From positions 496,001-560,000 of the forward strand of contig CP142730.1 in NCBI GenBank assembly GCA_036630325.1: a DNA stretch of 64,000 nucleotides, in the 5' to 3' direction. The DNA comes from Vairimorpha necatrix (taxonomy: Eukaryota). Shown one piece after another: positions 6,144 through 32,797 of the stretch (position 1 is the stretch's first letter; each line of letters opens with the position of its first letter). The notes below the pieces were generated by a model. That model was not told the DNA's origin and ran no database searches. It saw only the letters and a program-made list of their open reading frames with translations. The translations under genes and the position numbers were made by a program.

Positions 6144-7224
6144 AATGGGGGGGTAAAGAAAAAATTTATTCATATGCAAAAAATAAATTAAAAATCTTCG
6201 ATATTTTATAAAACTTCTACAAAAAAATTAAAAGATGTTTATGATCTATGTAAAAGCTTTTAAAACATTTTTTATTTTTGTTTATTTATTATTTTTGATT
6301 TTGAATTTTTTATTTATTTTTTTTGAAAAAAAGAAAAATTAAAATTTTAATTAATGTTTTGAAAATTTGAAAAACCAATAAAAAGATACGGAATTCGCAA
6401 TATCAATGTCACACAATATTTTATTTTGACTCTTATTAACCAGTACAAGTTCTATTTTTGAACTTTGTGGACATCAGATTTTTAATCTGAAATAATATTG
6501 ATTTAATTAAACACGTGATATCCAAAACAAAACTTCAATCAAAAAGCGCCTGGAAGATATAACACAGCATAGATGGGAGGAGGGCTAAAATCAGCTTTAG
6601 TGTAAAAAAAATGGGGGGTCGAAATTTTTAAAAAATTGCCCCTTTTTTAAAAAAAGGAAGGGAATGCTGAGTAAAGAAGAAATTGAAGATTTTTATGAAC
6701 ATCTGCTAAGAAAGAAATATAAACAGAAATGTTCAATTTGTAGCTGGGATACATCTAGAGTATCTAACGAAACATTTTATTTGAGATGTAAATTTCCCAA
6801 ATGCGGCCAAAGATTTTCAATTTGGAATAATACTCTATTTTCAAATAGTAAGATAGATCATATTCTTATGCTGAAAATTGTTAATCTATGGACAATGGGA
6901 CTTAAAATAGCGCATATTACTAAAACTTTGGACTGTAATATGCAAAATGTAAGTGCTACACTTGAGAAATTATTTTAATTAAAAATTTATGAAAAATATA
7001 TAAATAAAACAAAACAAATAGGAGGCGAAAATATCATAGTGGAGATCGACGAAAGTAAAATAGGTAAGAATAAATACCACAGGGGAAAATTAGTTAAAGG
7101 ATTTTGGTGTTTTGGGATGGTAGAAAGAACAACAGAAAAGAAGATAATATTTGTCATAATAAATAAAAGAAACAAGGATACATTGCTGCCGATCTTATTT
7201 AAGTATGTAAATTTGAAATCTATC

Positions 7225-8894
7225 TGTGGTATCCACCACTGAGGAAAGTATTTAAAATATTTTTATTATTCATTCTATGCTTCCTTTCCATTATTCCGTA
7301 CCCCTCTCCAGATAAAATATTTAAATAAATGTTGGAGGGAAAACGGGTCGAATTTGGAGGGAAGATTTTAGAAATATATTTTATGATATTTGGTATATCA
7401 TAATCTGCCTCTCCTTTTGCTTCAAAGTTTACTATCAACCAATTTTTCATATCCCGGTATTATATTAGATACTATATCTGGAGGCTCTTCTATTGTATTA
7501 TTAACATCATTATTTATAGTTTCTAACCTATTTTTGGTGTTTATATTATCCAATGTAGCTATCATCCTCTTTCTTGTTTTAAAAGTCTTCAATAGTTTTG
7601 GTTTACCAAAGTATTTTACTTTATACAGAATTTTCTCGCGATTTTGCTTATTTTCACCTTCGCTGTTTTCTATATTGTCTTTCAATACATTGTCCCCGTG
7701 GGTTGATTTTTTAGCTCTTACTATTATCTCTTCGAGTTTCTCGTTTTTAACTTCCTTGGCTTGTGGTTTTTTAGCGGTATCTGTGCTCGCTTCTTTAATT
7801 TCATCTGCGTTAACCGCTTTCTCTTTATGTAACTCGCTGTTTTTGATGTAGTGGTCTATTTTTTCGGCAGTTTCAATGCTTTTATTTTCCTCACTTATGG
7901 AAAAGCAGTTTTGCATTAGCAAATCTTTATTTTGTGTGGCTTCATCTGTCTTCATGTTGTTATTCTTATTTTTATTACTTTTATTTTTCTTAAAGCAATC
8001 ACTAGTATTATGAGTTCTTGATCGATGCAAACTACACCATCTATTCCCATCCTCTCTATGGTTTGGTTCTTTGACCTCGACTCGGTTATTCCTTATTAAG
8101 ACTACATCATTTCGAATTCTAGCTACTAATTCTTTCTCCAAGCTTACCAATAGATAAATAATGTCTTTAACATTCGTAGTATTTAATTTCAGAACATAAT
8201 CTTTTGTATCTTCAGATAAAGCATTTAGACAGATTTCATTAAATCTTCTCTCATATTCCTTCTTAGTATATTTTTCTAAATAAGATGCCACTTCAAGTTT
8301 GGCATAAATATCATTTATCATATCTTCTATCAAAACATAATTAGATTGTTTAATTTCTAATAATTTAATTCCTTCATTTGAAAAGATTGTATGCGGATAG
8401 GCAACAGTTAATATTTCTTCCTTACCCTTCATATAAGACTTACAATTGTTCTTTCTTTTCCATTCTTTACTTTCCACTAAATTTTGTAGCACTAACAGAT
8501 TCTCTTCATCGCTCCATTCTATTTTCTTACTCAATTCTTCAAATTTTCTGAACCATTCTAGCATATTGGTTCCTTCAATACAGTTTATTATTTCTAACTG
8601 TTTTATAATAGGCTCTTTTAGGCCCTTGACTTTGATCTCAAAGCTGATCGTGTCTTTGGATTCATAAGTCTTTATCCTTTTGTTTAGTATAGGATACATC
8701 TTCGTTAAATTTAACTTGTGGTATCCACCACTGAGGAAAGTATTTAAAATATTTTTATTATTCATTCTATGCTTCCTTTCCATTATTCCGTACCCCTCTC
8801 CAGATAAAATATTTAAATAAATGTTGGAGGGAAAACGGGTCGAATTTGGAGGGAAGATTTTAGAAATATATTTTATGATATTTGGTATATCATA
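7225..8894 (-). mobile_element. Gag-only non-autonomous LTR retroelement with identical 178-bp LTRs
   Basis: LTRs 7225-7402 and 8717-8894 look identical. CTATC TSD at 7220-7224 and 8895-8899. PPT GCAAAAGGAGAGGCAGAT. No TGG-type PBS. Confidence 0.92.
7422..8783 (-). CDS. gag: Gag-like protein with CHHC zinc knuckle and a C-terminal extension; no pol
   Basis: Intact 453-aa ORF with WCSLHRSRTHNTSDC. Aligns by eye with the Gag part of 11321-13609. Confidence 0.85.
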   Translation of the reverse strand: MERKHRMNNKNILNTFLSGGYHKLNLTKMYPILNKRIKTYESKDTISFEIKVKGLKEPIIKQLEIINCIEGTNMLEWFRKFEELSKKIEWSDEENLLVLQNLVESKEWKRKNNCKSYMKGKEEILTVAYPHTIFSNEGIKLLEIKQSNYVLIEDMINDIYAKLEVASYLEKYTKKEYERRFNEICLNALSEDTKDYVLKLNTTNVKDIIYLLVSLEKELVARIRNDVVLIRNNRVEVKEPNHREDGNRWCSLHRSRTHNTSDCFKKNKSNKNKNNNMKTDEATQNKDLLMQNCFSISEENKSIETAEKIDHYIKNSELHKEKAVNADEIKEASTDTAKKPQAKEVKNEKLEEIIVRAKKSTHGDNVLKDNIENSEGENKQNREKILYKVKYFGKPKLLKTFKTRKRMIATLDNINTKNRLETINNDVNNTIEEPPDIVSNIIPGYEKLVDSKL

Positions 8895-9453
8895 CTATCA
8901 TTCATTCCGATATGTGGAAGGCCTATATAACGTTAAAAAGCCATTACGCGGACCATAGAACTGTAAATCACAGTCAAACATTTAGAGATAATGAAACAGG
9001 TGTCCATACAAACACCATCGAAGGAAATTGGAGGTCTTTAAAAGCCTCTATACCCAAAAGGTGTAGAACATATGAACTTTCTGAAATCTATTTAACTCTA
9101 TATATGATTAAAAGAAATGAGATTCAAGACGCCTTTGAAGCATTATTAAAATTATGTTTTTGATATATTTTACTTATTTTAATACAATTTTTTTATATTT
9201 TTATATCTTAATTACATTTTATTTTTTTTCTGAAGTTTTCTCTTCCCTTCCTTTTTTAAAAATTTCGACCCCCCATTTTTTTTACACTAAAGTTGATTTT
9301 AGCCGGAAGGAGTTACATATGAAAACAACTTCCATTAAACATTGTGATAAAAAAACTAATAATGAAAGTTTAGTCGTACAAAATTTTATATAAAAAATAT
9401 TAGTTCTTTTTTATAGCATATTTTTGTTCTTTAACTCATGCTCTCTTGTTTTC

Positions 9454-12400
9454 TGACGTAGTCCAGAGGAGCTACCTCTGGATAAATATAGTTCGATGTA
9501 ATTAATGATTTTATTGTTATTGAATAAGCCTCGTTGGGCATCTGTTACGGGATACTGATCCCTGGCTTGGTAGCCCTTCCTTGGTCTATGTTCCCAAGGG
9601 TAATGATCGTTAGTTTGTTTCATGATCCGGTGGGGGTCAGGGCAAAAAAGAAATAAATATTCGATTTTTGGAATAGACCGGTCGAATGGTCTATTTTCCA
9701 AAAAGGGAAAATTGATAAAATAAAAATAAATATTTTGTGGTATTTATAATACCACATTCTACCCCCTCTAAAACTTTATGTTCTTAACATGTATCCATTC
9801 GTGGATTCCATTGACCTTTATCCACTTTCCTTTAGACCCTACTTGCGTGATTCTTCGCTTCCTCCGATATTTTCGCTCTAGCTTTTTGGCTGTTAAATTT
9901 CTTACATATACCATGTCTCCTATTCTGTATTTAACTGCAATTGGTATATGTTTTGTCTCCCGCATTCGTATTGGTCTTTTCAATGGATCGTAATATTCCT
10001 TTCCCGTCAAAGCAGCATTGGGTGAACATCCAATAGTCCTGTTGTAGTTATTGTTGATTACCCATTCGCACTTCTCAACTGCTGTATGTATGTTTTCACC
10101 TTTCATAATAGATAGCATAAACGATATGGTACGGTTTATTGACTCTGAGATACCATTTGAACTTGGTGTATAAGTTGGAATGCGTAAATGTCTTATGTCT
10201 GATTCCTTTAGATATTGTTCCAACTCTTTGCTTATATATTGTTTTCCATTATCAGTTATTAGTACGGACGGTTTAGATTCCGTGACTTCCATCCAATTGT
10301 TTACTGCTTGAATAATTTCTTCCCCTCTTATTTTATACGATAAGTAGACCTTTGTGTATCTAGTTTTTATATCAGTAATTGTGATTAAAAATGCCTTTTC
10401 GTGTTTGCCTTTATGTTTAAAGTTATCTAGGCTAGATGGACCATATATGTCCGAACTAATTCTTTCTAACTTGTTTTCTGACCACATAGGGGCTCCTACC
10501 TCTCTTTTAGTAAATGTTAATTTGTATCCTTTGCATTTTTTGCAATCTTGTACTACTTGTTTGATTTTTTTCAATAAGTAAGGGACGTAAAAAAATTTCC
10601 TTAAGTTGTTATACATTGTCGTGATCCCTCTATGTCCTTGATTATGATGGATTTTCTGTAACCAGTACTTTACCTTGGTTGATCTGATGTATATCTTACC
10701 TTGTTTGTTTGTTTTTATCCTTTGGCCTTTGTCTCTTATTACAGCGTCTTTGACAATTTTTATGTATTCATCCTCATTAGGTTCAACCATTGTGAAACAT
10801 CTTGATAAGTTATCTGCAATGATGTTTTCTTTACCTTCAATGTGTATTAATTTATGGTTAAATTCATTTATAATAAGTTTCCATCGACTCATTCTTGAAG
10901 TCTCGAGCTTTGGGCTGTGTAAGCAGTTTTTGCTATCTGTTCTTACTTCTACAAAATTTCCTTGTAAGATGCTTTTGAAATGGATTAGTGATAGAAGGAT
11001 TCCAAGATATTCCTTTTCTACAATGCTGTAATTTAATTCGACTTTTCCAAATTTTTTGCTGAAATATCCAATTGGTCCATCTTCTTGGTATAAGACACTA
11101 CCTATTCCTGTGTCCGAAGCGTCGCATTCTAAGACGAATGATTTAGTGTAATCTGGGCAAATTTACTTTGCACGTTTCTCAATAAATTCACTTATTTCTT
11201 TGATGATATTTTGAATATGTTGAGTTGATTCTATCTTTGCTCCTTGTTTTAGCATATCCGTGATAGGTAGTAATTTTGTTGATAATTTTGGCAAAAATTT
11301 TCTATACCATCCAATCGTACCTAAGAGTTTTGTACATCTCTTTTTGTTTTAATTCTTCTTTCTAAGATTTCTTTAGGAATAATTTTATTAGCTGGAAATA
11401 CTCCTTCTGCATTAATAACATTTCCTAGTACCGTTATTTCATTTTTCATAAAGTTGCTTTTTTCAAAATTTATTTTTACATTTTTTTCTTTAAGTTTATT
11501 TAGAACTTTAATAATTAGATCGTTATGTTCTTCCTTTGTCTTTGAGAATAAGACAATGTCATCTATATACACGAAGCAATTGTCCACTTCGTGTAATATT
11601 TCAGTAATGTATCTTTGAAAAATTTTCGGCCCCGGTTTAATACCAAAGGGTGCACGTTTGTACCTGTATTGGGCTCCCATTATCATAAAGGAGGTCAAAT
11701 CTCTACTTTCCTTTGTAATCTTAATTTGGTTAAATCCGTTCTTTAGGTCTATTTGAGAAAAGTATTTATTCTTTCCCATTCTGAGTATACAATCGTCTAT
11801 TCTAGGGATTGAAAAAATGTCATCAGCGATGTGATCGTTTATATCTTTAAAATTTATCACTAATCTCAACTCTCCGGTTTTCTTTTCTACAAAATATCCA
11901 GGACTTGCAAATGATGCTCTCGATTTTTCGATAATGTTTTCATCAAGTAATCTTTTTACTTCCTTCCTCGCAGCTTCGTGATATTTAAACGCAATGTTGT
12001 AGAATTTGTGACGCGTCATATTCAGTTTCTTTATTATGGTGAACTTGGCTTCATCCATTTTCATATAAGAGAAGTTATCATTAAGCTTTTGATATTTTTT
12101 AAGGTGGGATATATGAAGTTCATTAGGAGTAGACGCGTAAAGTAAATTATTTAATCTTTCGTTTAACACTTCGTCTGTGTTTGGAATTGCGTCCATAAAA
12201 GGAATTTCCTCTTCATGTATCCTCAATGACTGACTTGTAAAGTTAATTGTTGCTTTGTTCTCGCTTAACCAATCTGATCCTAGTAGTAAATCTACGGGAC
12301 AATCTTGTATAACATAAAAGTCGGCATTGGCAGTTATGCTTGGGGTGAAAGTTATCTTTATTGTAACTTTGGAGGTAATTGTTTTTTCGTCTCCATTTCC

Positions 12401-13664
12401 AAATATCGTGGTGAAAGGTTGGCAAGACTGAGTTTTATGGTCATGTTGATTAACCACTCGTTCACTTATAAAATTGAAATGTGAACCTGTATCGATCAAG
12501 AATAAATGATGTATTGTCTGAATTTTTCCAATTATTTTTACTTCTCTTTTTCCGCTCCTGTTTCCTAGTTGAATCCACATGTTGTTCCTTTTATTTCGTC
12601 CTTCATCTTGTTTCGATATATTTTTAGTAACCTGTAGGTTGTTACGTAGCCTACAGTTTCTGGTATCATGGGAAAAACTTTTGTGCGTGCTGCAGTAGGT
12701 CGTTCTTGACTTGGTCTGGTTTCGTTGTTCGTTGTAATTACCTGCACTTTCATTCCGCTTCCCTAACTGAGATAGAATGCCTGATTCGAGATTTTTTAGA
12801 TATTCTATCACTTCTAAGGTGCTTCTAGTGTTTACTTCATTCTTATACAGCTCCATTTCTGTTTGTTCACCCAGTCCTCTAAAAAATACTTCTGAGAACT
12901 TTCTCTCTGACTCCTGCTTACTTAATCTGTTGGTAAAGCTATAAGCATCCAACTTTAGGGAAATATCCTTTATATAGTCTTCTAGATATCGATAGTTGCA
13001 TTGTTTTACATCTTCAAGCTCTTGTGTAATCCTAAATTTCATGTTTCGGGGATATGCCATTTCAAGTAAGGCCATTCTCAATTTTAAATATGACGTGTTT
13101 TCTTTCGCAGTTTGGAAGTGATCACCAACACACAAACTTCCATAAATTAAACCCATCTGTTCGTCGTTCCATCCATTGGCCTGTGCTAGCCTCTCAAACT
13201 TTTCCAGTTGCTTCATTGTGATCTCGGAATTCTTCTTTATGATATTAATCTTTTCTTTACATATGACTTCGGTTCCTTTAACTTTCATGTCAAATTCTCT
13301 ATATTCGCCGTTTGCGAATTTATCATCATTATTTTTCTTTAGTCCGTCTTTGAATTCAAAATGACGTAGTCCAGAGGAGCTACCTCTGGATAAATATAGT
13401 TCGATGTAATTAATGATTTTATTGTTATTGAATAAGCCTCGTTGGGCATCTGTTACGGGATACTGATCCCTGGCTTGGTAGCCCTTCCTTGGTCTATGTT
13501 CCCAAGGGTAATGATCGTTAGTTTGTTTCATGATCCGGTGGGGGTCAGGGCAAAAAAGAAATAAATATTCGATTTTTGGAATAGACCGGTCGAATGGTCT
13601 ATTTTCCAAAAGGGGAAAATTGATAAAATAAAAATAAATATTTTGTGGTATTTATAATACCACA
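9454..13664 (-). mobile_element. Full-length Ty3/Gypsy LTR retrotransposon with 303-bp LTRs
   Basis: LTRs 9454-9756 and 13362-13664 (one substitution seen). TG..CA ends, TTTTC TSD, PPT TAGAGGGGGTAGAA. Domain order gag-PR-RT-RH-IN. Confidence 0.96.
9768..13531 (-). CDS. pol: Gag-Pol polyprotein with one frameshift near 11330
   Basis: Knuckle YCSTHKSFSHDTRNC, protease FLIDTGS, RT YIDD, RNase H (ECDASDTGIG, in a shifted frame at ~10900-11320), integrase HHNQGH...C..C and ITDNGKQY. The shift sits in an A-run. The start is uncertain; the first in-frame ATG is inside the LTR. Confidence 0.9.
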
Positions 13665-13870
13665 TTTTCTTATAACTAAATTGAATTGCGTTATTTTTGA
13701 AAAAAAGAAGATGTTTTTTAATAATTTTTTGAACTGATTAAAAAAATCATCTAAAAATTAACAGTATGTATCTTAACAAAAAATTATTATGATCTATGAA
13801 TTCGAAAATTTTTTATTATCTATTTCATTTTTTAAGCTTTGCAATTTATTAGTCTTTCTAGTATTACTAT

Positions 13871-13992
13871 TGTCGTAGCCCATCAAGTCCAGCCAATCAT
13901 CTTTCGACAAATGGACGTATTTGATTGGCTACTTAAACTATTTAAAATCATTTCCAAAAGAGGGGATGGAAACTCCAATAAAGTAATTGACA
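13871..13992 (+). mobile_element. Solo LTR (122 bp)
   Basis: TGTC...GACA ends, ACTAT TSD on both sides; same LTR as 20212-20335. Confidence 0.92.
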
Positions 13993-14133
13993 ACTATATT
14001 ACATTTATTAAACAAAATTTTTAATTGAGCTATGTCTTGTATTTTAAATATTTAAAACAACTAAATGACAATAAGTTATTTTATAGTAGCTAGCATGATA
14101 TACGACAAGTTCAATACTTCGTTTTGTACTTAT

Positions 14134-15855: not shown

Positions 15856-17980
15856 AACCATTTAAAACAACTAAATGACAATAAGTTATTTTTTAGTAGC
15901 TAGTATGATATATGAAAAGTTCAATACTTTGTTTTGTATTGTCCAATAAACATTGTTCCTTACATTTTTAATAAAAATTCGTGCCAACCACGTTATAAAA
16001 ACATTTACGTTCAACACAATACACAAAATCATTATTATATAATTGCAGGTGCATTTCTGTTTTTAAAGCGGCTTATATGATTTTTTTCTTTGAATATAAG
16101 TTTTCTTTTATTTTTCTAAGTTTCTTTTTTTAAAAAAATGAATCTTGTTGAAGGAATTGTGATTTTTAGTAAAAAACACTTTTTGTTACGTCAGATAGAA
16201 AAAATCGTTTTGATGGCTTTGCAGGCTCTCATAGTCAATCCTCCATCTTAGACTCATACTCCTCGATGTCATGTCTCATACCACTCAGTCACTTACTTAA
16301 ATGAAACTTCGTCGTCGACGAAAAAATGGCAAACCAATACATATTGTTTTGGTCTAAAATGTCATAATAAAGAAAGCTGCACTAGAGACTATCTTTCTTA
16401 CAAAAAATACTAACTTTGACACTATTAAAATCAAAACAATAAAGACCGAATTTTTGGCCTTTAACCAAGTCTTGAGAAAAAAAACAACAAACCACATTTT
16501 CATAAGAAACATATTAGTCACGGCGAGTAATAGAGGCAGTTAAACTATAGCGTTTTAATCGTATTGAGATATTTTTAAATACTTCTAAAGCTTAATTCTT
16601 TACACTTTGTTTGTAAATTTCCGATGCTTAAACTTTTTTGCAAATTTAATAAAATAGCGTAATATTTTAAAAAAACGATTTTTACAAAATCTATAATAAA
16701 TTGAAAATTATAAGCAACATTAGGTCGGCTAAATTCTGCCAACCGTTGTAACTGGGTTGTTAGTTTCAATTTTTTATGGTTTGCTTCTTTCGGACCTTTA
16801 TTTCAAATCTCCTTCTTTAGTTTTATAAAATCAGAAGAGTTAATTGAAAAAAAGAGGATGATACATTATAGATATTTGACATCTGTGACTCGTTGTTAAA
16901 CAAGTTTACAACTAAAAGCATAGATGGTGTAGTCTAAGACTTTATATATGATAAAGAACTCTTTCATAAGACAAAAAAAAATTTATTCAATTTAATTTAT
17001 TTAAATAGTTTTATTAACAACCTGCGGCAATCATGTTGCAGGTAAGTTGAATGTTTGTGATATCATGATTCATTCATGTAATCGGTACCGCAAGTGGCTG
17101 GCGATTACAAAAATCTTTTTACAAACTTTATTAGTTTGTAAATGGGCCTAAAACTATATCTTCTCAAAGGTCAATTAGTTTCTTGATATTTCACTATTGT
17201 GGTGTTAACACCAGGAGGCAGCCTATTGTAGATAGCATTCTAAGATACCCCTCCTTGCAAATAAGTTTTAATTTAATATTATATTAATTTCTTTTGACTT
17301 CTCTTTCGTCCTTTTGTCCTAATTGTAGCTAGTTCAATTAAAATTAAAAAAAAAATTTTAGCAAATATATTCTAGAATTAGTATTTGAAGGATAATAAAA
17401 TTGTGTTGTAAATAATACAACTAATTTGTTAATATATAATTTTTATCTTTGGAAGTGCGTGTCTCGTTATGAACCCGGTCTTATCAGCTGACACATGGTA
17501 TCTTCTAAGATATTAGTCAAAAAACTCAGTACACGATTTCTAAAGTATACAAAAATGGAGTTTAAATTCTTGTAAATGAATGATAATCTATTTACAATTT
17601 GTTTACCACTCTATCATTCTAACTTTGTTAATATGCTTTTAGCAATCTTAAAATAAAGGGTTCTCTAATTGTAATATCTTATCAATATTCACGATATTCT
17701 TTAATATATATGATTGTTTTGCTTGAGATCTACCTTATTACAACACTTTAATTTATAACTTATCACTTTTAAAATTTTAAAAACCGTAGTTTTTATCTTT
17801 GAATGCTTAAGAAAATCGATGGTTTTTTCTATGTTTTTCAAGCTGCGGAAGAATCTAATTTTTTTTGCAAATGTAAAAATAACTGCACATGCGCCATGTA
17901 GATGTGCTTTAAATAAATCGTCTATTGTTGCGTAATTGGGGCAATAGTGCTGAACTATGACAAAGATTCGTTTTGTTAAA

Positions 17981-19812
17981 TCATATATATAAAAGAATTT
18001 TATTTAATTTTTTACCCCTCTTTTTTCTGACTTTCTAATTTCTAAACGATACATTTTGGTCTTATTAACTTATTTAAATATCAAATTTAAACTCAATGCT
18101 TACATTTGATAATTGTAAGTGCGTATACTATATATTAATGCATTTTTATTCTATTTATTATTTTCGTAAAACTTAGTTCCAAAATATCGTCAGAATCGTT
18201 TTTTAGAATTTATTTAACCCTTCTAGAAAAATTGTAAAAACATTTAACCAATGATGATTTTAAAGATAAAGGTCAAAAATTGAGCTTAGAAGTTCCCAAA
18301 ATTATTTCAATGAGAATCATAAGTGTTTCTAACTTAACTTTACTCCTTATATGTTACTAAAAAGTATTTTTGAAAACGATGTCTTCATTCTATCAAATTC
18401 AATCATCCCGAAATAGAAACTCACCAAAATTCACCGAGGAGCGACATATTATAAAACAAAACATTCAAATCCCGTTTTTAAAACGGGAAAGCAATACGCT
18501 AGTCATCATATATATAAAAGAATTTTATTTAATTTTTTACCCCTCTTTTTTGTGACTTTGAAATTTCTAAACTATTTATTTTGGCCTTAGAAGTTTTTAC
18601 AATATCATATATAGATTTAATGTTTTGATTTGATAATTGTAAGTGCGTGTACTGTATGTTAATACATTTTGATTTTAATTCTTTGTTTTGTAAAACTCAG
18701 TTCCAAAATATCGTCAGAATCGTTTTTTAGAATTTATTTAACCCTTCTACGAAAAATCCTAAAAACAATTAACAGAAGAAGAAATTGAATGTAAGTATCA
18801 AAAACTGAGCTTTAAGAGTTCTAAAATTATCCCATAAAGATTCTTCTGTGTTTTTAACTTCATTTTACTCTCTATATGTCACTAAAAAGTATTTTTAAAA
18901 ATTATGTCTAAACTCTGTCAAATTCAATCATCCCAAAATGGAAACTTTACAAAATTTAAGAATGAAAGACATATTAAAAAACTAAACATTTAGATCCCGT
19001 TTTTAAAAACGGGAAAGCATACGCTAGTCATATATATAAAAGAATTTTATTCAATTTTTTACCCTTCTTTTTTTTTGGTTTTGAACTTTCTACACCATAT
19101 TTTTATTGCTTTTTATGTTATTTACATATCAAATATAATTTTACCGCTTTAATTTGACTATTCTAAGTGTGTATGTTATTAGTTAATACGTTTCCATTTT
19201 AATTCTTTGTTTTGTAAAACTTAGTTCCAAAATATCGTCAGAATCGTTTTTTAGAATTTATTTAACCCTTCTACGAAAAATTACAAAAAAGTCATATATA
19301 TAAAAGAATTTTATTTAATTTTTTACCCCTCTTTTTTGTGGGTTTAAAATTACTAAACGATACATTTTGATGCTTTTACGTTATTATAATATTAAAAATA
19401 AATTCAATGTTTTAACTTGACTATTCCAAGTGTGTATACTATGTGTTAATACATTTTGATTTAGATTGTTATTTTTGGAAAGCATGGTCCCAAAATATCG
19501 TCAGAATCGTTTTTTAGAATTTATTTACCCTTCCGCGAAAAATTGTAAAAACATTTAACCAATAATGATTTTAAAGATAAAGGTCAAAAGTTGAGCTTAG
19601 AAGTTTATAAAAGCATTTCAATATGACTCAAAAGTGTTTTTAACTTAACTTAACTCCTTATATGTTACTAAAAAGTATTTTTAAAAACGATGTCTTCATC
19701 CTATCAAATTCAATCATCCCGAAATAGAAACTCACCAAAATTTACCGAGGGGCGACATATTATAAAACAAAACATTCAAAACCCGTTTTCAAAACGGGAA
19801 AGCATACGCTAG
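17981..19812 (+). mobile_element. Tandem array of 4 non-autonomous Helitron units (~520 bp; third unit truncated)
   Basis: Units start TCATATATATAAAAG at 17981, ~18506, 19028 and 19292. Complete units end with the hairpin CCCGTTTTNAAAACGGG followed by CTAG (18502, 19027, 19812). The array sits between A and T with no TSD. Confidence 0.88.
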
Positions 19813-19879
19813 TACTACTATATATTTTTGTTTTATTTTGAAGAAATAAAATTCTTTCTTTTATCTAGAACTTTTACTC

Positions 19880-21200: not shown

Positions 21201-21665
21201 TTCCTTTTATCTTCTTATCCCTAAGTATGGAATTTTCTTTTATAATTTTTATTGTTTGTTTACGGGGTAAACAAACAAGAAATGTCAAAAAGTATATGTT
21301 TGACAGGTGGGATACCACAATTATAAAGACACCAACACCATCCATTGTTAAATGCATACATTTTATGATCTAATTCTGTTTATTTTCATCCATTCGCTGC
21401 TATATTAATTGTGAAAATTTTGATACCAAAAACATAAAGGACGATTTTTCATAAAAATCTTTTTCTTTGCGTGCATGGAATTAAAAAAGATTTAAAAAAA
21501 CATAAACCAAAGATATTTAGTCTCAAAAATATTAGCCAATAATTTCTTTGCAAGTTGATGGACTTGTTTGCCTAGAAAAGAATTCTGAACATTTTATTAG
21601 AAAATCTTAAAAAAATGCAATACTAAAATAAAATTTTTTTTAAAAAAAAATTTACAGCCCCATAA

Positions 21666-22345
21666 AGGTTTTCAGTCTTATTATTATTCATTTTGAATTT
21701 ACAATAATCAACAGCAACCCATGAGAATAATGAAAGTATTACAACACAAAAAAGTACGCACGGAACCAATGAATATGAAATAACTGAGTTTTATGAAGTC
21801 GAACTTGACTACATTAAAAACATGGATTTAAGTATTAAACAATCAATAATCGGGATGATATATGACGTTGTATTAGAAAAAATGTGGTTTCCTATATTAA
21901 TGCAACATAGCTGGCCAAAAAAATTAAACGAAAATGAATATGAAATTCGGAAAGAAGACATAAATTTTAATTTTTTTATGCAACTTAAAAGTCATTCTGG
22001 GGACATTAATTCCCTTTTGTGTAAACATTGGCTGTTAGCAAATTATTATTGGCTCTTCACAAAAATATTTCTAAGTTATATATTAATTTGTTAAATTAAA
22101 TATTTTTGGGAATAAAAGTTAATGTTAATGATGCGAAAAAAATTATTGATGGATTTGTCCAAATAAAAATGAATGAAGAAAATAATTTATGCATTGAACA
22201 AGTTTTTAAAAATGATGTGTATGAAAAACTTGATGAATATATCATAGATAGTAATATTGAAAAAAAATATGAATACTCTGAGAGGAGGATAAAATATATT
22301 GTAGGAAGTGCTACACGTGTCAAATATATAGTGTCATTGTTTTGA
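21666..22345 (+). pseudogene. Small secreted-type protein pseudogene, copy A
   Basis: Homologous to 52161. ATG mutated to AGG, with an early TAA and frameshifts. Confidence 0.7.
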
Positions 22346-23416
22346 TATATTTGAAACTTTGTTTAATTAAATATTTTAGAATAAATAAACCCATGTTTTC
22401 ATTCCAACATATATAAATATTACTTTTTCTCACAATGTTTAATTATATATTAGATTAATTTACACTGTCTATAATATAACTTTTTAATGTTTTTGATTAA
22501 GCACATCGTTCTGTAAACCAACTTCTTTCATTTCTAAATAATAACATCTCTTCGACAAATTTATTCAAAAAAAACTTACAAGAGCAATAATAGATTCTAA
22601 AAACTTTAGGATTTCATGAAGTATAAATCCGCCCTTAATTTAATTCAAGAAATTTGAAGTCTCATATAAAAAAAATGTGTCAATGCTATCAAAAACAGTT
22701 ATCTTAGCAATTTCAATTTGTAGCATACATGAAAAGGAAGATGTAAAAAATTACCAACGCATTTTTATAATAAGTATAGGTATAAAGGCTTTAAAAAACA
22801 ATATTACTATCAAAACATAGTCTAATTACATAACGACTGCAAAAAAACAAAGTCATTAAAAGACTATTTTTATTCAAGTAATCTATTTTTTATTGCAAAG
22901 TGTATATTAATAATGCAATCCAAAGGTAAGAAATACAATTAGCGTCAATTTTTAAAGCGTAAAAAATGAATTCAAAATTAGTCATAGATTAAGGATTTCC
23001 TAGAGCTAGCTAATAAGTTATATATGCTCCAAAATACATACAAAGTTTTTTAAAATATAATATAATTTATCTTATACGGATGTGTTTTATGGTTTGCGTT
23101 AATAACGTTAATATATTTTATAAACTTTAATCTAATGTCCATTCATTCCTCAAACTTAAATATATTTATAAAAGAAATATATGCTCGATTTTAATCAATT
23201 AGATAATCTTTTTCATATAATGTATTTTCTATTATACATAAAGATGTGTATAACATATTTAATATGTTGCGCTTGTAATTCATTGGAATAAAATTGTATC
23301 CCTGTATATGCCTGTAAAAACATGACCAAGAGAAAGCCGTATGAAAGTGTTTTTAGGTAGTTTTATAAAAATTTTATATTTAATGTGTCTAGGATATAAC
23401 GAAAAATCGGCGTATA

Positions 23417-24910
23417 GGTCTGTGCCTGACTTTATTTCTCTCTTATGGATTTTTATAGAGAAACGAAAAAAAATAACTTCAAATATTTATCCTAAGAAAA
23501 CTTTAATAATTTATATAAAAATAAGCTCTACGTAACTCTTGATATTTTATTATATTGCGCACCCTTTCTCCATTTAAATTAACAAAAAAAGTCGTAGTTA
23601 CTTTTTCTTTGATCATTTTTTAGCTATTATATCACATTTAAGATGTGATCAGACTCCTCTATTAAATTTGCGGCCTCTCCTGCTTCGTTTTTAAAACCAG
23701 CATCGTAGATTACAACGCGATGATCATCGTTGATAGATTTTACTACTTTGTGATCTAATTTATGCCCATCAGTTATGCAAATCGTTTCGTTTTTTATGTT
23801 GTTTTTAAAAAACTGAGCCAATATCTGAATAGTCCGGTAGGTATTGTCTCGACTCTCAATTCTAACGTCGCTCGTCTATTGTACCTACCAACCATGCACA
23901 GTTTTTCACTGTGTCATATCTTTCTGAAAATGGTTGAACATATTTCCATTAATTATAACCGTTTTGTCGCCTATGCCACTTTTTCAACCCTCCTATTATT
24001 TTTTTGTGTTTAATTTTTCCTTTTTTGTTGTTTCATATAATTTTTTTATAGCCCTGAAGACACTGGAAGCTTGCACACAAAATTTTTTATTTAGGTATAG
24101 TGTAGACAGCTTTTAAGTGAATGAATACGTAATTTACAAATAATTATTGTCAGGCGACGAACCTACGCTGACAATAAGAATCCCCAAATGTGATTGATTC
24201 TTATTTAATATAAATGTGAAGGATAATATAAGTGACAGGTGAGTAATTAATATTAAACACGAGCATTTAGAGAGTTACTTTAATTTTATCAATTTACACT
24301 TTTCGGAATAGAACGTCGAAATGGTCTATGTCAAATATTTCCTATTTATTTATTCTCCAGTCCTTACCCTTGATCATGAAAGCAATTAACAATCCAAATA
24401 AATCTATTATTGATACTCCGTCTTTTATTTAAGATCAGACCACGTGTCTGATCACAAATATATATAGGTATTCGGGTATTCGTAAGTGCATTTTTTTTTT
24501 TAAAAAAACTCTCATTTATGTTCCACATATCGTCTTTCCTCTACACTTAAACAATGACAAATTATGTGCGAATCGTCCGACATTAATATAATCATACCGA
24601 GACAACTAGTAAATTCAATGGTTGTATTCAGTTAGGGGACCATCTTCTAGCCAACATTTGACTCATTTGGGCCTTGGAAGATTTTTGACCTATGTCAAGC
24701 GGCCCTAGACATAACATAAGGGTAAAATATTTTGGAAAAAGAACATTGAAAAGAAAAAAGTATACTCAAGAAATGTTAATCCGGCTTATTAAAACAAATC
24801 TGTAAAATTTTGATTCTTGTGGATAAAGTTCGAAAAAAAAATTTCATTAATTTGCCGTCTGTGCCCGGATTCAATACGTAAAAAAAATATAGAACGTCCA
24901 GGCACAGAGC
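23417..24910 (-). mobile_element. Degenerate Merlin/IS1595-like transposon
   Basis: Fragment ICITDGHK...HRVV...GFKNEAGEAANLIE resembles the ISXO2-like DDE C-terminus. Imperfect TIR GTCTGTGCCTG. Ends are tentative. Confidence 0.55.
24148..24559. mobile_element. Probable solo LTR (~412 bp)
   Basis: TGTCA...TGACA ends flanked by an AATTAT duplication. Confidence 0.7.
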
Positions 24911-25490
24911 GTTGCGATGAGAAATTTATAAAAATTTTTTTTTGAGAAAAAAAGACCACAAATGAATGCCGAAAACGAATTAGGATTTTACAGCATGTTG
25001 TAAATATATTTTCTTGCTTTTTTGAATTGTGTAAAATCGTAAATCGGAGGAATGTTCTCTGTAAAATATAACCCTAAAGTATAAATTTTACATAACTACT
25101 TAATAAATATCAAAAATGTGATTTAGGATTCATAATGATTTTCCGAACCTCGTATAAAATAATCAAATCTTCCTATGTGTAAACCCATTTAAAAGGCTTT
25201 AAATATATAAAAATTTATATATAGCAATATGTTGGCTAATAAAATGGAATGATCTAAACATGAATAAATATTAATTGTTACGGAATTTTAGTAAAATCAA
25301 ATGACTGTACATAGATCTACGCAAAAACAAAAGCGAAGAAGACTACTTTTGTGAAATTTGTTATATCTGAAAAAACTTAAGCACCATAATACTTTTTAAA
25401 AAAATAGATTTAAATCTATTTTTTTTCTTACAATCTACTTGAAAGATATATAATAATGTTTTTTTGACCAATTCCCTAATCATAAAAATA

Positions 25491-26128
25491 GGTATATGGC
25501 CGTTTGCAATCCGCTTTGAAATTTTAACGGACCCACCTTTCTAAAAAATGGCAAAATTGGCAAAACAATGTTTGTTGAGGCAGATGGGCTTTTTAGTGAT
25601 GAAATGTATTTCTACATGGAAAACAAAGTAAAGTTTATTTTGGATTCATTTGATGCTGATTAGGCGTGCGCCTTGCTCATTTCTGTAACTAGTAGGAATG
25701 CTGCTATTCTCTTGAGGTTATGCAAGATAATGTATAACCTGTTTCTATTGTGATTTCTAGTCAATGGGTAGCATATGAGAACACATTAGACAAGCAAAGG
25801 GATAAAGAACAATACTATTAATCACTCTATCAATGCTGTAAAATTTAGCGATTCCGAGACACAATACCAAATAAGTTATTTGGCGTTGGCTCGTTTCTAA
25901 AAGAAATATTCGATCTATATATGGACTAAACCATGACGAACACTATTAGCACATTTTACAGTTCCTCTGGGCATTCAAAATCTCCAAAAAAACAACGGAT
26001 AAATCGTCCTTTTTCATTATTTAAAATAAATCGTTAAGTCTTTTTTTATAATTTTTTTTATTTTTCCCTTTTTTTTATTTTTCAAAGCGGGTTCATTTTC
26101 CCAAAGCGGGTTCCAAACGGTTTGCACC
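25491..26128 (+). mobile_element. Merlin-like internally deleted element, copy A
   Basis: TIR GGTATATGGCCGTTTGCAATCCGCTTTG. Remnants resembling (S)QW.AY and TINHS. The TSD is clearer in copy B. Confidence 0.7.
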
Positions 26129-27479
26129 TAAAATAATATCATTAAAGCGATTAAAGAAACTTTGAATATAAAAAAAATGTGTCGGGGAAGAACAAAATGG
26201 CAAATTGCTATGTATTAATAATTACGTTAGGTTTCTTAAAAATAAATTAATTTTCTTTTAAATTGTACATGGCTAGATAATTCAAGAACACAAAGACCAA
26301 ATATATAAAATTTAAATGTTTTTGTACAATAAGACATTAAAATACGAAGTTTTTGTGTAAATATCAAAAAATATAAACTAGTGATGTCTATATCGAAATC
26401 CGGAAATAGGTAAAAATAATCAAATTGAACAAAAAACAAATAAGGGGGAAGGTAAACTGTAGAAGTTATAAACAGTTTAAGGGAAATGTCCATTGACCAT
26501 TTTTATTGGCTCAGGAAATGTAAAGAAGCGGGGCTTATGTCTAATTTGCAGAACATTTATGTTGCGAGTGCGCTAGCTAAACATGAAACTACAAGAATTT
26601 TGCTATAAAAGCTATAAGTTATTCTAGAGAAACAGGTTTTTTTTTATTGACCTAAAAAGTCTTTTGACAAAGCCCAAGTAAGTCGAAATTTGATGGCTTA
26701 TCTTGGAAAATATGCATTCAAGAGTTGAAGAGAGCATAGAAAATACAAAGAAGATAAGATAGATGACCTCGGCCAACATATAATATATTTTGATGATATT
26801 TGAAGAATATATAAGGACGAAAATTTCCCAGTATGGTACCTTATGGGATTATATATGTAGAAATTAAAGGCGTCGAAATCGATTACTTATTTTGGCGCTA
26901 CTTAAATTCAAAAGTACATGGGATAAAAAAAATAAAACAATTATTCTAACAATAGTATTTTGATAAAAGTCTCTGCATAAGTTTCAGTATTTCTTTTTTA
27001 AATTTCTAGATATAAATTGGAACTCGTATATATTATCCTATATTTAACTCATGATTTCTCTTCTTGTTCTCAATTGGGTCTTAAATGACTTCAAAGATTG
27101 TCTGTTTAGTTAATATGTTGTTCATGCTGATTAGTGAAGCCAATACTATAAATAACAACTTCATGAAAAAATCCGAAGTCGCGAACAGCAGAACGTAAGA
27201 AGCAAAAGCATCAGCTCCTATTGGAATTCCTGCAACTATATTATCCCTATAAATCTTTTATTATGGGGCAAACATATGAGAAACAATTTTAATAATCAGT
27301 TGTTGCTATCATTGTTTGCACCTTTAACCATATAGATTGTTTAATGTATATCTTCCTCTTGTGTATAATTCGTAATTATACGACCCTTACATATTGCCGT
27401 GTCGTCGACCTGAATAGTTTTTCCTATTCCCCTATTTTTACAAAAAATGTATTATTTCATTTTTTTTTAGAAAAAGCCC

Positions 27480-28050
27480 TTAAAAAAATGTGGTATAACT
27501 CGGAGGCCTCACATGTTGCCGATGCCATTGAGTCAGTCATTTTGATCCAGCATTGAAATATTATCAGTTGTATGTATGCGGGCATCCAGGACTTTGCAGT
27601 ATAGCGACATTTTAGGTCTTTTCGTTTTTTTGCAGCTTTTTGTACAGTAAAAAGAGACTCCTTCCGAGTAGTTTTTAGAATTTACTTGGTTCATAAAACA
27701 ACCACATTCACACTTTAGAATATTTCTATATAGTTTATAACCTATAATACAATTGGCTGCTTTTCTTCAACAAATATTGTGCTTAGAGATTTCGACTTGC
27801 ATTAGGGTGTAAAAAATCAACATGTACAAAATCTCTTTCCATAAATTCACAATCATTCAGCATTTAGAATTTTTTGTACAATGTTTACAATACATGTTCG
27901 CGATTTTTTTCTTTTTAAGCCCTATTTTATTATTAATGAGCGCCCTAATTTCTATACTGGTCAAAATTTTAATAATTTATCTAATCACATTAGTGGTACT
28001 TCTATAGGTCTTTAGCATGCTGAATGCTCCATGCAATTTTTTGAGGAGGA
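27480..28050 (-). pseudogene. Possible Tc1/mariner-type DDE transposase remnant (duplicated at ~58205-58770)
   Basis: The minus strand reads DARIHT and LNGIGNM*, resembling DNARIH and LNPIENxW. Heavily decayed. Confidence 0.4.
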
Positions 28051-28356
28051 TACAATGAATGCATCATTTATAACTACTCTTTTATCAATTCATAACTATG
28101 TTCAAAACATTTTGTAGATACAACATTGTTGTAAAAGATTCTCTTAGTATATGCCTCCCTTATTTCTACGACATACATAGGATACACTTGAGAAGATGAA
28201 CACATAAAAAGTAATTCGTTTAATCGGCGTGTTTAATAGTGAAAAATATAAATTATTCATAATATAAAACGATAGATAATTGTAGAGCCAAAAATGATTA
28301 TTAGACAAAAACAAACTTATAAATAAAACCATCGATGTAAGTATAAATGCAAACTT

Positions 28357-30581
28357 TTAATAATTGTATAATATTTCTACTAATTTATTATGCAAATCTA
28401 TGGCCGAATCTCCTTCCAGTAAATATGCTAATATGTCTTTGTATCCTATTTTTAAAATAATATCACAGATTTTATTATCATATGCGACATCTCTAACACT
28501 CGAATTTACTATATTTTTAAAATTTTCCAACAATAAATTTTTTACTATATGGGTTTGCTGTTTTTTATTCATTGTTATCTTTTCTTAAATTTAATCAGTA
28601 AAAGTATTTTTGATTTCATCTTCATATTCACTAATCAAATATTCAGATAATGCTTTTTCAAATTTTTCTACTAATTTATCTCCAAAATTTAAAATTTTTG
28701 GTTTATATTTTTTTATAAAATCTTTAAACAATTTTTTATAATTTTGTATCTGAGTTGACGAAATAATATTTCTAATAGCTATAGTGACTTTTTGTTTTAA
28801 TTCAAATTCCATTTCACTAATTTTATTTTGCGTAATCTCCAACATATCTATATTTATTGTTTCGTTTAATAATTTTTCAAAACTTTCTCTACATAATTTC
28901 TGTAAAACTGTTTCGTAATTTTTTCTTGATTCCAACATTTCATTTTTGTCTTTTTCTTGTATTCTACTTATTAGTATATTTCTATCTAATTTTTTTATTA
29001 AATTTTTTGTATTCCTTTCTATTTCTTTTTTGTCGAAGCCCAGATTGTTCAAAAATCCATTTTTCATGAAAGTATATTCATTTCCATCTTGTTTATATAA
29101 AAAACATCATCGTTTGTAAATAATGTCATCATTTTCAATAAAAAATTTTCAATGTTTTTGTTATATGTCTTAATATCAGTTATATGAGCATCTATAACAT
29201 CATATATTTTTATTAAATCAATTGAGTTGTTGCCTTCTTCTGATATCAAATTTCTAATGTTTATTAGAGTTTTAAATATTGGTTCATTGAGAGCCTCGGT
29301 TTTTTGAATAAACCTGTCTGCTTCTAAAAATAAACAACCTTTCATGATAAAACTACAGATATCAAATCTTTCCGAAAGAGCTTTTATTAGTTTCCCCACT
29401 AAATATATATTACTTTCATTGTTTTCAGAAAACTCTCTTTTTCTTATTATCATATTTTTTTCGTCTCTGGTAATCTCCCCCAAATATTCACTTAGGTGAG
29501 CAATCAATATATTAAGTACTGTGCCAGGTTCGTCTAAAATCATATTTAGCAGGAATTCAAGTCTGTTATTTACTTTAAATATATGGTAAAATAATTTGAA
29601 ACCAGGAAACTTATTTTTTACCACTAAATAAAAAAATTGAAAAATCATTTTAAATTTGTCAAAACATTTTTGATCGATAAATTCGTGATTTTCTTTGGAG
29701 TTTGCATTTTTTTCAACCAAATAAGAATCAGAACTAGTGTAACTAGAAAATGTTATTTTTCCATTTCCGATCGTGATCTTGAAATCGTCGTAGTTAATTT
29801 CGTTTTCATTAAAGACCTCTTCAATGTCTTCGTCATCAAAAAAATCTACGATCGTATCAAGGTTCACATTGGTGTATAATTTTTGCACATTATTGAATAT
29901 TATACCATAAAAATTATCCGGGATTGGATGTATTTCAAAGTACAACTTTTCGGCCTCATGTATACTGATATTGAAATCAAATCTACTATAACCATATTTG
30001 CTATAAATATTCGAATGGATACAGTGCATATTACCTTTTTTTAAATAAGAAATTAATGGAATATAAATATTAGAATCACTTCCATCATTTTGTTTTATAA
30101 ATTTTATCATTAAGTGCTTCTCGTCATGATAAAAATTTTGTTCAAGAAAATGATCAAAAATTATTTCATTATTTTGATCTTTGATATATATTACAAGATC
30201 TCTCATAATAGGATAGTTTAAAATATCTTCAAACGAGTACTTTAGTATTAAAGTGTCAATAAACAATATCATACTGTTATTTTGAATTTGTTTGTCAATT
30301 TTTTCAGCAATTAGCTTTACTGATTTTTCTCCACATTCAATTTCAAAAAAAAAAGCTAAATTTTTTAAATTCGAAAATGCACATTCTAAATATATATCAC
30401 AATTTATAACATGATCTCCGCCATCGTAATTAATTGATGCACTCCAATAACGTTTACTATTATCAAAGATAATATATTTTTTGTTCCTTATTAAATTATT
30501 TAAATAATGACTTAAGTTATCATAACCGAGGTTTGTAGTTGTAACAAATAAAATTGTAAAAAATAAATTCATATAATTCAT
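28357..30581 (-). pseudogene. Frameshifted copy of the 741-aa secreted-family gene
   Basis: Three consecutive ORF pieces match 59080-61305, with indels near 29095 and 28585. Sequencing error cannot be excluded. Confidence 0.8.
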
Positions 30582-32028
30582 ATGGGGTTAATTTTTTAAT
30601 AATAATATTTGTCGGTGATCTTGTGTCATACTATAAATCTTATTTCCTATATTGATGGATGACACGCCATAGAATGAATTGTATAGTATTTAGTCAACGT
30701 ATATATTAGGTTTTTTTCAGAAATAACAAAATTATAATTTGATACGGAAACATCTTTAAAGTCGACCGTTTGTCTGCAATTGTGTGATGCACTTGAGTAC
30801 AATACATAGAAAGATGTCATGTATATCACCTGTCACACGTGTTCAAAAACATGTTAATCATTTCAAGCGACCCACCAATATGAGTCACACAAAGAAACAA
30901 ACAAACGAAAGTTGTATAGTTGTAACTGCTTTCGTAAATACGCCAATATTTGCAGTTTAGTATGACAACAAATGATAAGTTAAAAATGAAATATAAAAGA
31001 AAGGCTGTCTTCGAAGGGTATGGAATATATGAGGAAGAAAATTACCATGCATAAAAGAATCAAATGTAAAAGCTATTTCGAAAAATACTTTAAAATGGCT
31101 ATATCGCCGGAAAAATGACAAATTGCATCAAAATGAATTGAAGATCTTAGAACGGTGATATTTTTCTAACCGACAATGAGGTTATATTAGTTGCTATTAC
31201 GCTTTCAATTTTTTATAAGAACAGAAAGCTCCGCCGCGTAAGACGAACTTTGAATTCAGCAAAATTGTACCATCTTTATCGCGCCGAGTGGATTTTCCCC
31301 AGACAGCAAATTATATCTTTAGGCGAGGCATCATCTGAAAACTATGAAAGGCCCATATTATCATCCGCATCCTGCTCTTAGTCATTTTCACATCTAGCCA
31401 CCAACCGCATTTTATGTTTTGCGTTGACTTATTTTTTTTCAATAGCATTGCCGTCTTAGCTAATAGAATATAGATGGGCATTCACAACCTTTTCCTACAT
31501 CGTAAAGTTTTTTTAGTGTACCGAAGGATCACGCTTTTAGGACATAAACAGGGTCTTTTTTATTGTCCATATAGTATTTTATGGAGTTTGAAATAACAAT
31601 ATAATTACAACAATCCTGCTAAAAGTACATTTATTATAAAACTAATTTTCCGAGAACTACATGTCTAAATATTTGGTTTTTTTGACAGAATAAATTAAAC
31701 ATGTGAACAAATGTAAAATTTTTAGTAGTACAAGAACAAATGCCCCTCGAGAAAAACGAACTCAATTTCTTTTGCATCAAAAACCCGCTTTCGAGTACTA
31801 AAATAAGACATTCTTGGCGATCCCGTAATTTATAGACATTATGGAATTTATTGACACTTAGCGCCGAGACCTTTGAGTAAAACATATGACTAAGATTAAT
31901 CTGTCGTACATGAGGATAAATTCTATTTCTAAGAAATGTGCATCATTATAGACTTTGTAAAATTTTAAAAAAAAATTAGTAGCAAAACCTAGGATTACAT
32001 AGAAAAAGATACAGATCAGATAAAATAA

Positions 32029-32797
32029 TTTTTTTTTGCAAGTAAGTGTTAAAAATCTCTTATTGGCCTAGATGAATCGGATGTGATCCTTTTCCAATTT
32101 TACTGTTAAATTATTACCTACTTAAACTCCCCCATATTACATGTCAATGCAGAAATCTTCGCCTTGTCCATTGAACTTGGCTCCAAAAGTCATTTTTTAT
32201 TTATGCCTTTAATCGCGTTTAAGTGACCTCACGGCTGATATACTTAACAGGCATGGTTTTTTTAGCCCGTGGAGTGACATCATTATGCTAACTCAAAGGT
32301 CTCAAAGAACATCTGTTAAGCACACAAGGAGTGTACAATCACAACATAACCAGCCAGATATTTTCATTGGCTGTCGACCTTAGTCTCTCCCACTAGATTC
32401 GGCCAACGGACCACATACCCTGTAGAACAAGGTCCAAAAGAACTTCTGTTGCTTTACTTCGTCTAGTCTTTAGTTAGCATTAAAATCACACTCTAGAGTG
32501 CACCAGCCCTTGGCTTCAATGAGGCCATATCCATCAGATACTTTCATGTATTATAAAGCCACTTTAAGAAGTTAGTGCTTCTGGTATTAAGTGCTGTTCC
32601 TATACCAGACACCAATTCACTTATTTATGGGCCCATACAGGTTTCATTGAATCAACTTAATGATTTTGTAGACATTTTTATCCTCTGAGTTGATCCGACT
32701 GCATCATAGAAAGTAGAAAAAATTTTTGGTAGCCCTGACATTCGAACTTAGCATTGTATAATCATAGCGTCGCCTTCTACATCTATGCTAAAAACTT
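32029..32797 (-). mobile_element. tRNA-headed SINE-like element, copy 1
   Basis: Head with A-box-like TAGCATAGATGT and B-box-like AAGTTCGAATGTC. Body homologous to 33322-34099. Short A tail. Confidence 0.65.

Follow-up and report, generated by a model that had tools for sequence, protein, structure and literature searches.

The stretch of DNA analysed here, referred to as the window, comprises 64,000 nt of the Vairimorpha necatrix contig CP142730.1 (positions 496,001 to 560,000, assembly GCA_036630325.1); positions given below are counted from its first letter. The window is AT-rich, with a G+C content of 24-37% per 2-kb bin, and dense in mobile elements. Two of these, both encoded on the minus strand, are long terminal repeat (LTR) retrotransposons: element A, which contains gag only, and element B, which is of the Ty3/gypsy type. 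At the position of the primer-binding site, both carry a perfect 12-nt palindrome. We tentatively propose that this palindrome replaces the tRNA primer-binding site and acts by pairing with itself. The features of the two elements are as follows.

7225-8894, minus strand: element A, a non-autonomous gag-only LTR retrotransposon of 1670 bp, located inside a Merlin-type DNA transposon
8717-8894, minus strand: 5' LTR of element A, a 178-nt direct repeat with the sense sequence TATGATATACC...GGATACCACA
8716, minus strand: spacer A of element A, 1 nt between LTR and palindrome
8704-8715, minus strand: palindrome GTTAAATTTAAC of element A, starting 1 nt past the LTR; proposed equivalent of a primer site
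8692-8726, minus strand: hairpin of element A spanning the LTR end, with the arms GGATAC (8721-8726, in U5) and GTATCC (8692-8697); folding energy -12.3 kcal/mol
7422-8699, minus strand: gag open reading frame (ORF) of element A, 425 aa, with its ATG (8697-8699) 18 nt beyond the LTR
7403-7418, minus strand: polypurine tract AAAAGGAGAGGCAGAT (sense) of element A, immediately preceding the 3' LTR
7225-7402, minus strand: 3' LTR of element A, identical to the 5' LTR
9454-13664, minus strand: element B, Ty3/gypsy-type, 4211 bp, encoding Gag, protease (PR) and reverse transcriptase (RT), followed by RNase H (RH) and integrase (IN)
13362-13664, minus strand: 5' LTR of element B, 303 nt, with the sense sequence TGTGGTATTAT...GGACTACGTCA, ending in CGTCA
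13361, minus strand: spacer T of element B, 1 nt between LTR and palindrome
13349-13360, minus strand: palindrome TTTGAATTCAAA of element B, starting 1 nt past the LTR; proposed equivalent of a primer site
13345-13366, minus strand: weak hairpin of element B spanning the LTR end, with the arms CGTC (13363-13366) and GACG (13345-13348); folding energy -9.3 kcal/mol
11321-13288, minus strand: gag-PR-RT ORF of element B, beginning at the first in-frame ATG (13286-13288) and ending at the stop
9768-11162, minus strand: RNase H-integrase ORF of element B, 464 aa; a frameshift and an in-frame TAA lie between it and the RT ORF
9757-9769, minus strand: polypurine tract AGAGGGGGTAGAA (sense) of element B, preceding the 3' LTR
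9454-9756, minus strand: 3' LTR of element B, with one mismatch to the 5' LTR

The LTR pairs are identical in 178 of 178 nt (element A) and 302 of 303 nt (element B). Both elements are flanked by perfect target-site duplications of 5 bp, which are CTATC for element A (plus strand, 7220-7224 and 8895-8899) and TTTTC for element B (plus strand, 9449-9453 and 13665-13669). These values bear out the initial annotation of the stretch, according to which LTR pairs differing by 0-1 nt indicate recent reverse transcription. Because the 3' LTR and the target-site duplication fix the LTR ends, the 1-nt offset of the palindrome is exact in both elements. The insertion of element A splits a DDE_Tnp_IS1595 domain, whose profile positions 6-78 lie to the left and 78-144 to the right (E-value 6.6e-9), and the transposase frame is restored when it is read across the empty site. 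Copies elsewhere were sought in the contigs of two DNA runs (X1 and X2), which share about half of the sampled words with the window. In run X1, contigs carry the empty site of element A itself, with position 7219 joined to 8895 and 1675 nt skipped. The perfect target-site duplications, the near-identical LTRs and this empty site in other copies of the host transposon imply that the elements do replicate.

The LTR of element A starts with TA (sense TATGAT...), that of element B with the usual TG. Both LTR copies of element A show this start, so the element was integrated with a TA...CA LTR. The host of element A is a Merlin/IS1595-type transposon (6583-9304) bounded by terminal inverted repeats of 53 nt (6583-6635 and 9252-9304) that are 98% complementary. 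In addition to the split caused by element A, its transposase contains a stop at about position 6978. The depth of the run X1 contigs over this transposon indicates many copies.

Elements A and B are related and recently inserted, as is supported by several observations. Their Gag proteins share 30% identity over 247 aa (E-value 3e-25), in line with the homology that had been noted before, and their LTRs are alike over the first ~30 nt. A degenerate motif of 27 nt derived from the LTR start matched the window four times, with 0.01 matches expected, and the four matches are the four LTR starts of A and B. Further members of either family were not found in the 64 kb. Element B displays, in this order, the Pfam domains RVP_2, RVT_1, RT_RNaseH, Integrase_H2C2 and rve; its integrase follows RT-RNase H, which is the gypsy gene order, and the best solved relative of its RT is the Ty3 RT (4ol8, E-value 1.6e-33). 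With these LTRs and this domain order, element B is a Ty3/gypsy (Metaviridae) element; element A has gag only. A search with the Gag-PR-RT protein of element B against 5.8 billion proteins gave just 6 matches. The closest of them comes from a microsporidian, Pancytospora philotis; this polyprotein (E-value 3.5e-51, 27% identity, 80% coverage) has the Gag motif YC..H.S.SHDTR.C in common with element B. This match and the abundance of Merlin/IS1595-type transposons fit a microsporidian genome rich in transposable elements, of the kind surveyed in PMC4202319.

As the initial annotation had stated, neither element has a TGG past its 5' LTR; none occurs in the first 40 nt of either. Both palindromes start 1 nt past the terminal CA of the LTR, are perfect over 12 nt and differ in sequence (8704-8715 and 13349-13360), again as first described. 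In the sense direction, the junction of element A reads ...GGATACCACA / A / GTTAAATTTAAC / GAAG ATG TATCC and that of element B ...GGACTACGTCA / T / TTTGAATTCAAA / GACGGACTAAAG. The two 23-nt junctions can be aligned without gaps and are identical at 15 of 23 positions. Within the palindrome, the only differences concern positions 1 plus 12 and 4 plus 9, that is, two compensating pairs, which change from G-C to U-A and from A-U to G-C between A and B. The other four of the six pairs do not vary, and pairing holds in 12 of 12 cells. Because the differences compensate, the comparison points to self-complementarity, rather than sequence, as the property selected at the junction.

It had further been claimed that outer arms join the LTR end to internal sequence in both elements. 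For element A this holds: a 6-bp stem (GGATAC/GTATCC) gives the fold listed above a z-score of -2.10, and only 6 of 200 shuffled sequences fold as well. Here, GAAGAT separates the palindrome from the 3' arm (8692-8697), and the gag ATG overlaps this arm. For element B the arms do pair, but the 4-bp stem (CGTC/GACG) is weak and at chance level (z-score -0.66; equalled by 48 of 200 shuffles). The palindrome is therefore the robust feature shared by both elements, whereas an LTR-spanning hairpin is convincing for element A alone.

Could two functionless palindromes have arisen by chance in AT-rich DNA, with the true priming site gone unrecognised? Such DNA is palindrome-rich: the window contains 48 centres of perfect palindromes of at least 12 nt other than (AT)n, compared to 39.4 +/- 5.4 expected from a first-order Markov model, and the chance-level stem of element B would agree with this explanation. 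However, 48 centres correspond to 7.5e-4 per position, so that even one palindrome at the exact LTR offset is improbable, and two were seen. In our own simulation, the probability that four random substitutions leave the palindrome perfect was P = 0.0033. The motif CANNTTNAATTNAANGA, with one mismatch allowed, matched the window only twice, and the matches are the junctions of A and B. We regard a chance origin as extremely unlikely; the junction feature is real, non-random and had been correctly observed.

Four other LTR junctions in the window possess TGG sites, namely TGGCGCCCTGTACGG, TGGCGACAACTGCGAAC, TGGTGGAATAGTCCGCC (after a 4-nt spacer) and TGGTGGAGAATAT. Families primed by tRNA thus coexist with A and B in the same stretch, and the use of other LTR families as an internal control, suggested from the outset, is justified at these four junctions. 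All four sites are GC-rich, unlike the palindromes of A and B, in each of which only 2 of 12 nt are G or C. This difference bears on an explanation by which a cellular RNA, such as one half of a tRNA, a fragment from its interior or a small RNA of another kind, primes A and B, as in copia, Ty5 and some plant copia elements. Elements of the Osser type are also among those primed by half-tRNAs. The palindrome would then be the sequence of the primer itself, or a separate signal for dimerisation or packaging that overlaps the primer site. Half-tRNA primers are established in several copia lineages (PMC6317226), and a palindromic stretch of 12 nt is reported from the 5' end of the yeast initiator tRNA (PMC4974528). 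Under this explanation, A and B, though related, would each need a primer of their own, both of them palindromic at the same 12 positions and both equally poor in G+C, while the tRNA sites in the same window are GC-rich. Nor would a fixed cellular primer predict the compensating differences between A and B. Rfam models applied to 7000-14000 detected nothing tRNA-like and just two sub-threshold matches resembling snoRNAs; tRNA genes were not found within the 64 kb. We consider a cellular primer unlikely, although it deserves to be kept in mind.

Two candidate sites with a resemblance to tRNA were inspected and rejected. The last 11-12 nt of both LTRs (8717-8730 and 13362-13373) consist of TGG plus 8-9 nt, whose complement would end in CCA, and U5 of element A contains TGGTGGA, which corresponds to the first 7 nt of two of the TGG sites elsewhere in the window. 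A primer site hidden in U5 was nevertheless dismissed, as the 3' LTR ends in this stretch too, which the standard strand transfers would not bring about. The TGG stretches coincide with the terminal inverted repeat of the LTRs and were judged to be a coincidence. The second candidate was a 7-nt identity in sense orientation between CGGACTA in the leader of element B and the tRNA end deduced from one TGG site; it has the wrong sense and is at chance level.

In fungal gypsy elements, the established way of priming without a tRNA is self-priming of the Tf1/sushi type (PMC4600332, PMC6317226). The first bases of the transcript, which stem from the 5' LTR, fold onto the segment past the LTR and are cleaved into a primer. 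The initial annotation had found no LTR complement of this kind, and our searches led to the same result: the longest Watson-Crick match between the LTR and the 22 nt following it is 6 nt in each element. With RNAduplex, pairing to the LTR of element A reached -7.6, compared to -6.85 +/- 1.78 for shuffled LTRs (27.8% of 500 as good). For element B, with strings offset by 2 nt, it reached -6.1, compared to -8.59 +/- 1.78 (95% of 500 as good). In a search of the whole elements with exact coordinates, the sole complement of at least 9 nt to the first 24 nt past the LTR was the palindrome itself; one 8-mer complement lies elsewhere in element B. A second copy resembling the palindrome, with at most two mismatches, was not found anywhere in either element. 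Moreover, the RH-IN ORF of element B, which reaches the polypurine tract, contains no chromodomain at E <= 0.01, and the nearest protein relative belongs to a microsporidian. A short or G-U-rich pairing at the transcript start is conceivable. Even so, ordinary Tf1/sushi priming appears very improbable for A and B.

The folding energies favour pairing between two molecules. The isolated 12-mers do not form hairpins (0.0 kcal/mol) and instead form duplexes with -9.4 and -10.6 kcal/mol; in 61-nt contexts, the gain of the homodimer over two monomers is -10.8 kcal/mol for element A and -11.8 kcal/mol for element B. The palindrome, for which the duplex is favoured, lies inside a U5-leader stem, and a separate primer site is absent from the first 40 nt. 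One could argue that the palindrome merely serves dimerisation or packaging, forms a hairpin that controls translation, or is bound by a dimeric protein, and that priming relies on another site or mechanism. Palindromes that link two genomic RNAs are standard in retroviruses and have been proposed for Ty1 (PMC4974528), and the gag start codon of element A within the 3' arm of the hairpin would suit translational control. On the other hand, the first 40 nt offer no other candidate primer site, and in element A the gap between LTR and gag ATG is just 18 nt. Both elements show an exact offset of 1 nt from U5, which is a requirement of primer sites but not of dimer sites, and known dimer sites occur in addition to a primer site (PMC5445492). 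A role confined to these other functions is therefore regarded as quite improbable.

This leaves the self-pairing primer site. The palindrome sits exactly where the 3' end of a primer must pair, and it has the length of short primer sites. Given this position and length, a sole partner that is the site itself and a self-complementarity that has been kept, we favour, with less than even confidence, the reading that the palindrome is a functional substitute for the tRNA primer-binding site, which acts by self-complementarity and most likely through a 12-bp duplex between two RNAs followed by a nick. Beyond a self-complementary sequence at the primer position, the pairing of dimers, the nick and the priming step are what we infer. 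In such a scheme, the two genomic RNAs of one particle would pair via the palindrome and form the 12-bp duplex. One of the two strands would then be nicked where the duplex ends on its 3' side, by the RT/RNase H of the element or another nuclease, as in Tf1 with its 11-bp self-primer duplex, where cleavage occurs after nucleotide 11. On the partner RNA, the resulting 3'-OH would face the base with which the palindrome begins, 1 nt from U5, and would be extended via the 1-nt spacer into U5 and R, yielding minus-strand strong-stop DNA. The plus strand would later copy the 12-nt RNA primer and thus provide the homology for the second strand transfer. A short stem of the last U5 bases and the leader could present the palindrome, much as the stem between U5 and leader does in retroviruses. 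Less probably, the same principle would operate in cis, through a mini-hairpin within a single RNA. A further option, in which the 3' arm of the outer stem snaps back and primes, was discarded, as it would not regenerate the observed U5 end.

A number of points weigh against this reading. It rests on two sequences only, and a shuffle control for covariation is powerless at n=2 (130 of 500 shuffles reach the observed values). The outer stem of element B gives it no help. To our knowledge, Tf1 is the only element in which an RNA:RNA duplex is known to be nicked, and such a nick is assumed here. The palindromic 3' end of the plus strand could anneal to itself and hinder the second strand transfer. 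Given the palindromic stretch reported from the yeast initiator tRNA, palindromes in tRNAs are conceivable. Finally, pol of element B is broken by a frameshift in an A-rich run and by an in-frame TAA (~11160-11330), so that this copy is defective despite its young LTRs. Another copy, found in run X1, differs in the same interval by 8 letters and 2 gaps, and the break may reflect either a defective copy mobilised in trans, a later mutation or assembly errors. Taking these points together, tRNA-independent priming by self-pairing is plausible and the best available reading of the two junction sequences.

Priming of LTR retroelements is thought to be limited to tRNA 3' ends, half-tRNAs or the foldback of the transcript 5' end as in Tf1. 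The initial annotation compared A and B with Tf1/sushi elements only and postulated a distinct route. This was overstated, because a palindrome plus hairpin at the primer-site position has already been published for the fungal GalEa copia elements, which have no primer site and instead contain the Conserved Hairpin Site (CHS; PMC5445492). The closest published case is this CHS. Its authors proposed in 2017 that it stands in for the primer site and left the mechanism unexplained; the hairpin formed by its two complementary boxes may reach into the LTR (PMC5445492). A paper on bivalve TRIMs (terminal-repeat retrotransposons in miniature) cites the CHS for similar inverted repeats (PMC6934838). 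Like GalEa, A and B have no tRNA primer site, no Tf1-type complement in U5 or the rest of the LTR, and a palindrome at the LTR end. The differences are considerable. GalEa elements are Ty1/copia elements of Pezizomycotina, whereas A and B are of the Ty3/gypsy type, reside in a microsporidian host and do not belong to the GalEa clade. The first box, CHSeq1, has 9 nt and is palindromic only with the final A of the LTR; the palindromes of A and B have 12 nt and start 1 nt past it. The second inverse-complementary box, CHSeq2, which follows 12-41 nt downstream with a fixed A/A mismatch, is absent from A and B at up to two mismatches. Unlike in the CHS as described there, the stem of A and B consists of U5-terminal bases and leader that enclose the palindrome.

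The Tf1/sushi elements Tf1 and Tj1 resemble A and B in a tRNA-independent primer taken from their own RNA, in a duplex of ~11-12 bp beside U5 and in a cleavage step, which for A and B would follow from the proposed scheme; both the self-primer of Tf1 and its cleavage site are mentioned in PMC4600332. The partner differs: in Tf1 it is the transcript 5' end in the LTR (PMC4600332), whereas in A and B the only partner is the site itself. Neither the chromodomain nor the LTR complement typical of Tf1/sushi elements was found, and A and B lie outside that clade as far as tested. The Dictyostelid element Skipper combines a polypyrimidine stretch past the LTR with a chromodomain (PMC5006619), whereas A and B have a palindrome and no chromodomain was found. 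A further comparison is the retroviral dimer initiation site, which is mentioned in PMC5445492 and PMC4974528: a palindrome in the 5' leader that a hairpin presents and that can link two genomic RNAs.

In retroviruses, the stem between U5 and leader brackets the primer site. Their dimer palindrome has ~6 nt, lies in a loop downstream of the separate tRNA primer site and does not prime. In the literature covered, which is thin for subscription journals and supplements, no palindromic primer-site replacement was described, either for gypsy-type elements or for those of microsporidia. In the main survey of the latter (Parisot et al. 2014, PMC4202319), the terms "PBS" and "primer binding" occur zero times.

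A palindrome that takes the place of a primer site has been noted once before, in fungal copia elements, with the mechanism left unexplained. That gypsy-type elements in a very different host show this solution too, in young copies and with compensating changes between two families, suggests a general, convergent strategy. It is possible, though doubtful, that A and B represent a second, independently evolved class of tRNA-free priming, in which the palindrome pairs with its counterpart on the copackaged RNA, so that dimerisation and primer formation are one event; this would explain the CHS of GalEa, too. If priming by dimers proves true, RNA dimerisation and priming would be coupled, which bears on the question of why retroelements package two genomes. 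The junctions offer a compact test system, with 12 nt of palindrome, 18 nt between LTR and start codon in element A, and a non-autonomous partner. In microsporidian genomes rich in transposable elements, such families would be overlooked or wrongly scored by annotation tools that demand a tRNA primer site.

The contigs of the two runs also provide copies from elsewhere. In run X1, the LTRs exceed the internal parts in depth by a factor of tens to hundreds, which indicates that copies or solo LTRs are numerous. A second-run contig covers 12654-13391, including the junction of element B, with 4 differences, and a diverged copy in record 8 of run X2 shows 41 differences over 8481-8732. Variant contigs from both runs share the LTR and a short internal segment with the window and then depart from it. 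For element B, the first 24 internal nt are shared, with the breakpoint at 13338 and diverged sequence beyond it; for element A, ~43-48 nt are shared, with breakpoints at 8669-8674 and unalignable sequence thereafter. These contigs weakly suggest a stronger conservation of the segment directly past the LTR than of the gag start, and they hint at subfamilies that have exchanged the 5' region of gag and kept the junction segment.

Relatives of A and B were sought more widely. A single-protein scan of viral contigs and alignment scans of viral and prokaryote genome contigs gave no match, and the 27-nt LTR-start motif was not found in viral contigs. A match of this motif in a bacterial metagenome-assembled genome lies upstream of an ordinary gene and was taken as chance. 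One metagenome locus (L001) was set aside as uninformative: it begins within gag, has no LTR and encodes a CCHC-type Gag of another lineage.

Other repeats are found in the remainder of the window. A segmental duplication of ~12 kb (21320-33279 and 51816-64000; spacing 30.7 kb, identity 92-97%) carries long ORFs without a Pfam match, for example 59080-61311 (743 aa). A repeated element (1-2453 and 42104-44972, 88-96% identical) lies inside a putative LTR element that is bounded by 39068-39188 and 45106-45284 and contains an RVT_1 ORF at 40304-40966. A tandem array at 17978-19825 has a period of ~262/524 nt and an identity of 64-90% between units; it includes a perfect 20-nt palindrome at 18995-19014. 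The homopolymer run C(14)A(8) at 48390-48410 adjoins the 3' LTR of a TGG-primed element (48262-51840).

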